DNA of 64,000 bases, taken from positions 2,333 to 66,332 of the forward strand of contig CAADYO010000009.1 in assembly GCA_900753325.1 (NCBI GenBank). The letters run 5' to 3'. The stretch's first letter is position 1, and every line of letters starts with the position of its first letter. The position numbers and the translations under genes are program-made. Positions 22,107 to 24,413 of the stretch are shown here, in pieces. Under the pieces are notes generated by a model. The model saw only the letters and a list, made by a program, of their open reading frames with translations, was not told where the DNA came from and did not search any database. This DNA is from Bacilli bacterium (lineage in GTDB: Bacteria; Bacillota_I; Bacilli_A; RF39; UBA660).

Positions 22107-24413
22107 TTATCTTGATTTACCTTTACTTTGAGAGGCATTATTCTGTGTATGAGATTTATTTCTTTCAGTAATAAATCTCTGTCTTAATTCTTCACCAAGC
22201 TCATCTGGTAAAGCATGCATGCTTGCGCTTAGCTCTTTTCTTTTTGCCTCTACTTCCTCATTCATTTCTCTACGATCAATTTCATCTCTAATAGTATCTT
22301 GTTGATTATAAATTCTCTCTAAATCGTTAAGTAAGTAATAAGCTATGTCGTAATTTCTTGCTGTATTTCTACTATTTTCCAGTCTTTCTTGAGTTATGGC
22401 TAAGTATTTTTCTATATCTCCCATTTCTTTTTGGTATCCTGTTCGTGACATATTTCTCTCATTATCACGTATTTCTTTTCTGACGCTATTTAAATATTCT
22501 AATTCTTTTTGCTCTCTTTCAATTCTTTCTGATAGAGCATCAAAAATCGGATTTTCACTAACAATCTCTTCTACCGTTGCTGGTGTTTCTGCCTCATCGG
22601 GTGTATTAGAAACTTGATTTTCATTATTTTCCGTTTGCTCTGATATCATATCATCTATTGGGGTATTTTGAGTTACAGGTGCTGAGTTTTTCGCTACTGC
22701 TTCCTTTGTCCTAGCTAAATCATCCTGAATAATTTGATCTTTTAATAAACGATATTCTGAGGCCTCTGTTCCAAAGACATATGGCGGATCTTCTACTGTA
22801 ACGTTGCTTGAACCATTGTTTAATGTGGAGTTATTTCTAGCTAAATCATCTTGAACTATCTTATCTTTGCCTAAGCTGTATCCAGAATTAGTATTTTCTG
22901 ATACAGAGTCATTATTAGCGGGTGAAGTATTTTCTGCTTGCCCTGAAGGTGATGCAGTTTTATCTTTAGTTAGAGTACTTAATTTATCATCGTAATATTC
23001 ATTTAAATAAGACGTATAATCGCTTAATGTTTCGGTAATTAATATTTTTCGAGGTGCTTTTATATTATACTTTTGTGCAAGGCCTTCAAGTCTTTGATAG
23101 GTAGCTTTTACAGATGGAGCCTTTTTATCATACTCCTCAAATTGACGTTTTGTATCAAGTGTAAAGCAGAAGTTTTCTGGGGAAATGTTATATTTTGGAG
23201 ATAATGCTTTAATTTCACTTATAATCCCTTGTTTTATTTTATCGTTATGACTAAAATATTCTGGAACCATTCCGTATAGGATGAAATGAAGATCACGTGT
23301 CGTTAAAGAAAAATTTGGTTTAATAAAAGACATATCTATTGACTTGTATTTGGATCCTTCTTTTAAGTAAAATTGGAATAATTCTTCATATCCCTTTTTA
23401 ATTTGTTCTTTTTTATCTGATGATATATCCTCTATATCTGCATCCTGACATTTTGTTATCACTGCTTCTTCTATAATATATTCCTTTATAGTTTTATCTG
23501 GGCTAATGACACAGTCATTTAAATGATTCATTAGGTAATTCATGTATGCTTCTTGTAGTAAGTCTGCTCTAGCTTTACTATATGACATTCCTTTTTCTTG
23601 CTCTTTTTTGTCAATAGATTTAAATTCTGCTCCATACCCAATCCATCCATCCAAAACTCCAGCAACTAATACTGGTGGTGTAGTATGTTTTGTAATCTCA
23701 GGCATTTCTTTTCCAATTTCTCGTAAAACATTATAATTGTCTATTAGGTTCTCTGTTGATGAATATATAACTATACCTTCATCTCTTCCACCATGAACAG
23801 CAATTTTAAAATAAAATGGAAGACCTTTTTCATCACATTTTTCGGCATACATTCTTGCCAGTTTATGAATATTTTCCCTGTTTACATTTAAGTAGAATTT
23901 ATGTTTTATCTCATCATTATTAATTCTTACACCTGGGCTATTACAGTGAAAATGATGAAAAGTATCACCTTGATTTGTATAAAATGAAGTTAATATTATT
24001 TTTGCATCTTTTTCTTTAAAATATGATTGTATTTCTTCATTACTTTTGAATTCTGGGGATTTTTCTAGTTCTTCAAACCAATGGAAACTTTTATCTATTC
24101 TTTTTCTTATAATTTCATCACTGGAATCATAGATTCCTATTAGATAATCTCTATGCTCATCATCAAAATATTTTAAATATGATTTTTTAAAGATATTAAA
24201 TAAACTCACATAAAATTTATCTCTTTCTTCTGGATTATGTTTGGTATGATCTGTATCTTTTCCTTCGCTATCTTCACTGTTAAATCTTGTTAGTTTTTGA
24301 TAATAAGATATCCAAGGCGGCATGTTTTCTGTATTAAGATCAAGCATCGTTGTTAAAACTGTATCATCTAATATAGGATTTTTAATATTGTTATATATAT
24401 CCATACATGTCAT
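22107..24413 (-). CDS. Large orphan cytoplasmic protein (768 aa): uncharacterised N-terminal domain, S/N/T-rich linker with internal repeat, coiled-coil C-terminus
   Basis: No signal peptide or TM. The N-terminal roughly 450 aa has no motif I can assign. The linker carries a duplicated KD(K/Q)I(V/I)QDDLAR(N/T) unit about 45 aa apart. The last about 170 aa are heptad-like charged coiled coil (EREQKELEYLNSVRKEIRDNERN...). Confidence 0.5.
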   Translation of the reverse strand: MTCMDIYNNIKNPILDDTVLTTMLDLNTENMPPWISYYQKLTRFNSEDSEGKDTDHTKHNPEERDKFYVSLFNIFKKSYLKYFDDEHRDYLIGIYDSSDEIIRKRIDKSFHWFEELEKSPEFKSNEEIQSYFKEKDAKIILTSFYTNQGDTFHHFHCNSPGVRINNDEIKHKFYLNVNRENIHKLARMYAEKCDEKGLPFYFKIAVHGGRDEGIVIYSSTENLIDNYNVLREIGKEMPEITKHTTPPVLVAGVLDGWIGYGAEFKSIDKKEQEKGMSYSKARADLLQEAYMNYLMNHLNDCVISPDKTIKEYIIEEAVITKCQDADIEDISSDKKEQIKKGYEELFQFYLKEGSKYKSIDMSFIKPNFSLTTRDLHFILYGMVPEYFSHNDKIKQGIISEIKALSPKYNISPENFCFTLDTKRQFEEYDKKAPSVKATYQRLEGLAQKYNIKAPRKILITETLSDYTSYLNEYYDDKLSTLTKDKTASPSGQAENTSPANNDSVSENTNSGYSLGKDKIVQDDLARNNSTLNNGSSNVTVEDPPYVFGTEASEYRLLKDQIIQDDLARTKEAVAKNSAPVTQNTPIDDMISEQTENNENQVSNTPDEAETPATVEEIVSENPIFDALSERIEREQKELEYLNSVRKEIRDNERNMSRTGYQKEMGDIEKYLAITQERLENSRNTARNYDIAYYLLNDLERIYNQQDTIRDEIDRREMNEEVEAKRKELSASMHALPDELGEELRQRFITERNKSHTQNNASQSKGKSR

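Follow-up and report, generated by a model that had tools for sequence, protein, structure and literature searches.

A hypervariable HopA1/LanY-fold protein at a core locus of uncultured gut Bacilli: a candidate kinase-independent phospholyase

We analysed a 64,000-nucleotide stretch of DNA from a Bacilli bacterium (GTDB lineage RF39, UBA660; assembly GCA_900753325.1, contig CAADYO010000009.1, positions 2,333 to 66,332), referred to below as the window, and examined a gene, here called X, that lies between pta and ung and encodes a 768-residue protein. The N-terminal head of X has a HopA1/LanY-family fold, and both the fold and the family assignment are secure. Conserved residues in this head correspond to the catalytic set of LanY lyases, and we predict that X is an active, kinase-independent phosphoserine/phosphothreonine (pSer/pThr) lyase whose recognition surface is diversifying and whose tail is specific to its lineage, a prediction whose chances we judge to be about even. 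The fold, the likely chemistry and the capture of some members by Pfam are already known. What is new is the stand-alone, elaborated architecture that lacks a kinase, the family's size and its range of hosts, the copy at a syntenic core locus and its hypervariability.

Fold and putative active site of the head

The initial annotation, made from the sequence alone, described the N-terminal domain as unassignable. Both a Pfam match and a confident structural match now place it. PF17914 (HopA1 effector protein family) matches residues 171-289 of X at 23.9 bits, against a gathering cut-off of 22.7; relatives score 24.7-53.6 bits (E-values of 2.8e-9 for P0010 and 3e-14 for P0013), and family members such as P0017 score below the cut-off. 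An AlphaFold2 (AF2) model of residues 1-441, built from an alignment of ten diverse homologs, gave a predicted local distance difference test score (pLDDT) of 83.2 and a predicted TM-score of 0.81, and the full-length model extends this order to about residue 483. The Foldseek search of a modelled head that had been proposed as a check returned a HopA1/LanY-fold match, and an independent full-length model retrieved the same top 12 proteins as the first head model. By structural comparison the head has the fold of the HopA1 C-terminal domain, and among characterised enzymes LxmY and the lyase domains of LanKC come nearest to it in fold.

The matched structures cover about half of the head. The remainder, helices at about residues 1-145 and 297-483, is specific to this family, whose helical additions to the fold number about 200 residues. 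The conserved N-terminus is itself part of the folded head, with a pLDDT of about 90. Published structural work groups HopA1, OspF/SpvC and the lyase domains of LanKC under a single fold (PMC10604976; a bioRxiv preprint). Searches of Protein Data Bank (PDB) sequences with the protein, the head profile and the core profile gave nothing relevant, matches to influenza HA2 and isocitrate dehydrogenase being due to chance, and NCBIfam gave no match to the window protein. The head falls outside the OspF/SpvC/HopAI1 family (PF03536), both by membership and by the K104/H106/K136/Y158 residue set.

The putative active site is laid out as an H171-K172-F-Y174 strand, a K203 strand, an R210-D-E212 loop and a Y217 strand, with R282 on the helix that follows. 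It was aligned with the lyase CaoY, whose local sequence was taken from the mutagenesis inserts and primers of the CaoY paper (..GL-R187-V-Y-VHL.. and ..AYRA-K219-VISTRTGYP-R229-F-D-ALVL-Y236). Under the family hidden Markov model (HMM), CaoY residues R187, Y189, K219, R229, D231 and Y236 align to K172, Y174, K203, R210, E212 and Y217 of X, which lie in the pieces H-K172-F-Y174, FYF-K203, G-R210-D-E212 and IVI-Y217. In CaoY, the K219A and R187A substitutions abolish elimination and R229Q impairs it, and Y236 is conserved with Y158 of SpvC (PMC9486802). HopA1-like LanY enzymes such as CaoY and LxmY eliminate phosphate from pSer/pThr that has been installed by LanK, an aminoglycoside phosphotransferase (APH)-type kinase (PMC9486802; PMC12141560), and LxmK and LxmY form an obligate heterodimer (PMC12141560).

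Conservation was scored over 144 head modules from clusters sharing at most 50% identity. K203 is present in all of them (144/144, 100%), followed by Y174 and R282 (99% each), Y217 and R/K172 (98% each), and H171 and R210 (97% each). No positions of the protein are better conserved; elsewhere in the head, identity falls to about 25%.

Core locus, hypervariability and tail

X had been described as an orphan, but the relatives of the window protein form 240 clusters at 90% identity, and a search with the head profile recovered at least 1,126 clusters at 50% identity, of which 395 had E≤1e-30. The head is nearly always N-terminal, and the unrelated tails behind it range in length from 0 to over 500 residues. 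The hosts are almost entirely metagenome-assembled genomes (MAGs) of uncultured low-GC gut 'Bacilli / Tenericutes / Mycoplasmatota' from humans, goats and rabbits, which we take to be RF39-like. Four genomic matches come from Saccharibacteria MAGs; these contigs have about 40% GC and housekeeping neighbours, and so look genuine. Contigs labelled 'uncultured Muribaculaceae' that carry family members (L024, L033, L043, L058, L059 and L064) have 25-29% GC and are probably mis-binned low-GC Bacilli. No source in the protein collection gives these proteins a name, and our literature searches found no description of a HopA1-like family outside Pseudomonas and the biosynthesis of ribosomally made peptides that are modified after translation (RiPPs).

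In all 17 syntenic loci examined, a family member fills the slot between ung and pta, within the shared order dnaB - M23 peptidase - metallo-β-lactamase (MBL) - rlmH - ung → X ← pta - lemA - penicillin-binding protein (PBP). The neighbours in these loci are 54-94% identical to the window proteins, whereas X is only 23-71% identical. X sits in a core, origin-proximal housekeeping block and is apparently vertically inherited, and its neighbours are of Gram-positive type (PBP1 and LysM-G5-M23). Exact copies of the window protein occur on 9 public contigs, the longest of 1.128 Mb. The initial annotation had suggested looking for a patchy distribution, as a mark of horizontal acquisition, and for deviant GC content and codon usage. 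Orthologs remain syntenic down to about 25% identity, and the GC content of X (0.305) and that of its third codon positions (0.181) are typical of the neighbouring genes and carry no sign of transfer. The same annotation held that its view of X as a novel system would fall if the N-terminal domain matched a well-known housekeeping enzyme family and had orthologs at this position. A confident structural match and syntenic orthologs both exist, but the matched family is one of effectors and RiPP enzymes rather than housekeeping enzymes.

X is the fastest-evolving gene in this otherwise highly conserved block. Against a same-species allele (L001) it has 79 nonsynonymous and 26 synonymous differences (dN/dS 0.73), compared with 0-4 nonsynonymous and 0-10 synonymous differences in each of the neighbouring genes; between species, dN/dS is 0.48-0.66 for X and 0.03-0.44 for the neighbours. 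The differences from L001 concentrate in two blocks of the head (Table 1). The proportion of nonsynonymous sites changed (pN) in block 1 is 0.285 and that of synonymous sites (pS) 0.238, with about 26 nonsynonymous changes in 36 codons; in block 2 the values are 0.135 and 0.124. The catalytic core (residues 171-262) is quiet, with a pN of 0.023. Close alleles are mosaic, with cassette-like alternatives at residues 81-116 and 626-660, the latter in two alternative versions, and carry two or three linker repeats. A search for the template of a diversity-generating retroelement was negative, with no second copy of any part of X in the 64-kb window except an internal 19-nt repeat.

The full-length AF2 model bears out the proposed layout of a globular N-terminal part, a flexible repeat-bearing linker and a helical tail. 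The linker is disordered (pLDDT 25-37) and rich in Asn (10.7%), Ser (10.1%) and Thr (9.4%), as had been read from the sequence. The duplicated unit reported in it is real (SGYSLGKDKIVQDDLAR and SEYRLLKDQIIQDDLAR); it is a 17-residue motif whose copies are 42 residues apart, not 45, and corresponds in the DNA to the 19-nt repeat, with copies 126 nt apart. Tandem Repeats Finder reported no repeat in X, since at the DNA level this one has diverged too far and is not long enough. Among orthologs the unit varies from 2 to 7 copies, and its motif (Y-x-L-x-K-[DE]-x-I-I-Q-D-[DL]) recurs 1-7 times in syntenic ones, with three copies in allele P0004 and 5-6 in the P0006/L011 orthologs. In many orthologs it alternates with a second tail motif, G-x-M-T-[DE]-[DE]-E-I-x-x-S-Q-x-K-L-G, which takes the form [GA]-M-T-[DE]-[DE]-E-I-x-x-[SA]-Q-x-K-[LI]-G in the tails of syntenic orthologs such as L005, L015, L017, L018 and L030 and is missing from the window protein.

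The tail, which had been called a long coiled coil, is indeed charged (38% of residues) and helical. AF2 predicts four helices (622-650, 657-705, 711-733 and 737-761; pLDDT about 70-89) rather than one, and a heptad pattern rises above shuffled sequences only in helices 622-650 and 657-705 (p 0.017 and 0.03), with no continuous register across the tail. A homolog search with the tail alone returned only fragments of alleles from the same species, and the helical tail is missing from most orthologs; it is therefore a lineage-specific, exchangeable appendage and not the functional core. The protein has no transmembrane (TM) segment or signal peptide, as had been stated (the highest Kyte-Doolittle mean over 19 residues is 0.9).

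P0272 (L067:6001-10302), an allele that shares the 90% cluster of the window protein, is identical to it up to about residue 655 and then diverges. It is 1,433 residues long, with a Pro/Thr-rich linker followed by about 550 residues without a Pfam match, and a Pfam search of its whole 682-residue extension found no informative domain. Downstream of it lie DUF1307, an HTH_21 fragment and acetate kinase in place of pta. The divergence and the altered downstream genes point to a strain-level rearrangement with a breakpoint inside the tail. Pfam likewise found no informative domains in the long-tailed relatives.

Other members of the family lie elsewhere, and some of these are in mobile elements, next to genes for resolvase, KilA-N and NikA. 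A second head gene between the pta and PBP genes, or tandem head genes, occur at L015:9481-11211 (-), L030:9427-10728 (-) and L021:4451-5977 with 6001-7671, and three proteins (P0013, P0121 and P0122) carry two complete heads in one chain. Directly upstream of 21 of about 46 non-syntenic paralogs, on the same strand, is a gene for a conserved protein of about 172-183 residues (median gap -13 bp). Examples are L007:7431-7982 (+), L020:5431-5982, L021:3917-4447 and L028:3216-3734, with 17 loci more. Its product carries the motifs LKLxHYYWNSGDIDxGMPxSTSxEL and DLRxLKNNYFTEExPERFTHWExxYNxxFKIVGTYD and has no Pfam match. The layout resembles that of a chaperone or antitoxin gene, and the gene is absent from the window.

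One protein with an embedded head module is encoded by a 2,970-residue open reading frame (ORF; L034:100-9012, +), in which the head lies at roughly residues 1,990-2,440. Long acidic DSDTDN repeats follow the head, and close to the C-terminus come hydrophobic segments that resemble anchors. The sole Pfam match is an Ins_allergen_rp repeat (1866-2004). By eye only, nucleotidyltransferase-like (GS...DGDFD) and papain-like (GHAVYVVG) motifs can be seen upstream of the head.

Proposed function and alternative explanations

Judged from sequence and modelled structure, an active lyase is the most likely and most economical reading of the head. It would bind pSer or pThr in a protein or peptide that has been phosphorylated by an unlinked or foreign kinase. 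K203 would take the alpha-proton, K172, R210 and R282 would hold the enolate and the phosphate, and Y217 would complete the site together with Y174 and H171. Elimination of phosphate would leave dehydroalanine or dehydrobutyrine, so that the phosphorylation site would be erased irreversibly. Blocks 1 and 2, which lie on the surface next to the catalytic strands, may form the target-recognition surface, and the linker motif (Y-x-L-x-K-D-x-I-I-Q-D-D-L) and helical tail may serve to tether, to oligomerise or to recruit a partner.

Strict retention at a core locus, combined with hypervariability, paralogs, copies in mobile elements and modular tails, suggests a role in interaction or conflict. As a tentative extension, which we hold to be possible and well short of probable, X may be the representative, in the core genome, of a large and unrecognised family of phosphoprotein lyases that are independent of a kinase and act as conflict or interaction factors in reduced-genome, host- or partner-dependent bacteria (RF39-like Bacilli and some Saccharibacteria). 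Such factors would irreversibly erase foreign Ser/Thr phosphorylation, be it of a host, a competitor, a partner cell or a phage, with recognition blocks swapped between strains and modular tails directing the paralogs. If this were so, they would be the first phospho-lyase 'effectors' outside proteobacteria that bear a secretion system of type III (T3SS).

To our knowledge, phospho-Ser/Thr lyases are rare and are so far represented only by Gram-negative injected virulence effectors and by parts of lanthipeptide synthetases. More than 1,100 clusters with an apparently intact putative active site in abundant uncultured human and animal gut bacteria would point to an unexplored irreversible erasure of phosphorylation in commensals. 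If active, these proteins could alter the signalling of hosts or microbes, account for variation between strains of these lineages and provide new tools for placing dehydroalanine in proteins. If inactive, they would show how the fold of an enzyme can be turned into a hypervariable module for binding.

Several observations weigh against the lyase prediction. We know of no demonstrated lyase activity for HopA1 itself. The proven LanY enzymes are obligate complexes with their LanK kinase, and this partner is missing here, with no PF01636 kinase in the genes called up to 8 kb away on each side at five kinds of locus, syntenic and mobile-element alike. The locus annotations contain no T3SS genes and the 64-kb window no secretion system, the upstream gene being ung. 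The alignment to CaoY, although unambiguous in register, scored 0.0 bits, and some shuffled sequences reached 2.7. An hhalign comparison of the head core profile with SpvC was not significant (the SpvC query, checked against Salmonella plasmids, was 100% identical over residues 18-241), and the catalytic-acid His of OspF/SpvC is replaced by Tyr, as in CaoY. Allele P0005, a full-length ORF 72% identical to X, carries K203R, R210I and Y217C, so that catalysis is either dispensable in at least one lineage or P0005 is decaying. Finally, the high pS of the variable blocks indicates recombination with divergent alleles and not positive selection only.

The most serious alternative, which we nonetheless consider unlikely, is that X is a catalytically silent binding or scaffold protein, in which the HopA1 fold is an interaction module and the variable blocks and tail make changing contacts. 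The described function of HopA1 is binding of EDS1 and not catalysis (summarised in PMC9486802), dN/dS is high throughout the head, and P0005 has kept a full-length ORF without K203, R210 and Y217. This explanation does not sit easily with the conservation data: the LanY-equivalent catalytic set, K203, Y217 and R210 among it, is the most conserved part of a head that otherwise diverges to about 25% identity, which is the pattern of an active site and not of a shifting interface.

Somewhat less probable again is a delivered effector or toxin with the same chemistry, leaving the cell through lysis or by an export route not yet recognised, which would target phosphoproteins of a host, competitor or partner and whose arms race would explain the hypervariability. 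The suggestion of an effector-like protein in the initial annotation was on the right track, since the fold of the head is that of HopA1 effectors and LanY lyases, but the context of such effectors, a T3SS or a chaperone gene, is absent from the locus. HopA1 (HopPsyA) of Pseudomonas syringae (PDB 4RSW/4RSX), which gives the matched Pfam family its name, relies on a T3SS and the chaperone ShcA for its delivery and carries a chaperone-binding domain at the N-terminus. By contrast, the window locus has ung upstream, the host has Gram-positive-type genes, and sequence identity to HopA1 is about 14%. The OspF/SpvC/HopAI1 relatives are also injected effectors, and SpvC/OspF place their catalytic Lys and Tyr on strands equivalent to those of the head; X differs from SpvC in having no detectable sequence relationship to it, a Tyr for the H106 acid and no mitogen-activated protein kinase-docking N-terminus. 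Nor is the head fused to a kinase or cyclase. Paralog expansion, mobile-element copies, tandem double heads, very variable tails, the overlapping upstream gene of about 175 residues with its chaperone/antitoxin-like layout in about half of the non-syntenic copies, head modules in Saccharibacteria as well as in small-genome Bacilli, and the anchor-like end of the 2,970-residue protein would all fit delivery. Set against these, X has no signal peptide or TM segment, its conserved N-terminus is folded and not a free signal, no secretion system lies within the window, and the window copy lacks the upstream partner gene. Its core, origin-proximal site with apparently vertical inheritance and the lack of PADLOC matches also argue against delivery.

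A place for X as the LanY subunit of a RiPP pathway resembling that of class V lanthipeptides, with kinase and precursor genes elsewhere in the genome, seems improbable. It would account for the closest characterised enzymes by fold being LxmY and LanKC lyase domains, and for the match of the catalytic residues to CaoY. The LanY lyases (CaoY, LxmY [PDB 9DK1] and TvaD/ThoD) have in common with X an Arg/Lys-x-Tyr strand, a catalytic Lys strand and an Arg-x-Asp...Tyr motif, and the chemistry, beta-elimination of phosphate from pSer/pThr, is likely common too. The context of X, however, is different. There is no LanK partner, precursor peptide, decarboxylase, transporter or biosynthetic cluster at the window locus, where the neighbours are dnaB, M23 peptidase, MBL, rlmH, ung, pta, lemA and a class A PBP. 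PF01636 was missing from both the syntenic and the mobile-element surroundings noted above, and no Hanks- or APH-type catalytic-loop motif occurs in any frame of the window. The extra helical parts of the head, the disordered tail region and the hypervariability are foreign to RiPP tailoring enzymes. X also differs from the LanY lyases in its long disordered repeat linker, its helical tail, its many paralogs and its host, an uncultured low-GC gut Bacilli lineage and not an actinomycete.

A cytoskeletal or coiled-coil scaffold, or a phage-derived factor, both offered in the initial annotation, is very improbable: the tail is charged and helical with a heptad pattern in two helices, but it has no continuous register and is restricted to this species' alleles, so that it cannot define the function of the family, while X has native composition, no match in PHROG or PADLOC, no relatives in IMG/VR and only low-TM-score noise in a fold search of the viral models in BFVD.

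Gene structure and flanking signals

The coordinates of X, its parts and its flanking elements are given in Table 1. The ORF, with its ATG start, is present exactly as first reported, and the position of X between pta and ung, convergent with pta, was also correct.

Table 1. Features of X and its flanks, in window positions
Feature	Position	Strand	Basis or remark
Complete coding sequence of X, 768 aa, ATG start	22107..24413	-	Program ORF list
Ordered head module, aa 1-483 (conserved family module ~aa 1-441)	22965..24413	-	AF2
Hypervariable block 1, aa 81-116, helical hairpin of N-terminal subdomain	24066..24173	-	Comparison with L001 allele
Hypervariable block 2, aa 141-170, loop and strands immediately ahead of catalytic strand	23904..23993	-	Comparison with L001 allele
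HopA1/LanY-type alpha/beta lyase-fold core, aa 143-296	23526..23987	-	
Putative active-site segment, aa 171-217	23763..23903	-	Family-HMM alignment to CaoY and conservation
R282, on following helix	23568-23570	-	
Disordered Ser/Asn/Thr-rich linker, aa 484-620	22554..22964	-	pLDDT
Linker repeat copy 1, SGYSLGKDKIVQDDLAR, aa 510-526	22836..22886	-	Direct sequence reading
Linker repeat copy 2, SEYRLLKDQIIQDDLAR, aa 552-568	22710..22760	-	Direct sequence reading
Charged helical tail, aa 622-761, four predicted helices	22131..22550	-	AF2
pta, convergent with X	21035..22051	+	Spacer to X of 55 bp
Hairpin in pta/X spacer, A/T runs on both sides, likely bidirectional terminator	22053..22098	.	Folding against shuffles
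Ribosome-binding site of X, AAAGGGAG	24423-24430	-	Sequence
Promoter-like site upstream of X, TTTCCA-16-TATAAT	24440-24467	-	Consensus scan; consensus match only

The hairpin in the pta/X spacer has a minimum free energy of -14.0 kcal/mol on the plus strand and -11.4 on the minus strand, far more stable than shuffled sequences (z -4.3 and -4.1), and U-runs flank it on both strands; the bidirectional terminator that had been proposed is therefore plausible. The claim that X has its own promoter is less secure. A ribosome-binding site is present, together with a sigma-70-like site that agrees with the consensus at 10/12 positions and is a consensus match only, but such matches are not above chance in this AT-rich region (23 found against 18.9 expected). 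As these matches are unenriched and no terminator was found between ung and X, so that read-through from ung is possible, the monocistronic transcription first assumed is likely rather than demonstrated.

The gene for an MBL-fold protein that lies between rlmH and the gene for the M23 peptidase (251 aa, 25622-26377, -) matches both Lactamase_B and PF23023 (Anti-Pycsar_Apyc1) at every syntenic locus. This probably reflects generic MBL similarity of a conserved housekeeping gene. GC skew changes sign near 47 kb (46000-48000), where gene orientation switches as well, as would be expected if a replication origin lay about 23 kb from X. Further along, at 56001-57000, lies a very AT-rich kilobase with a GC content of 0.178.

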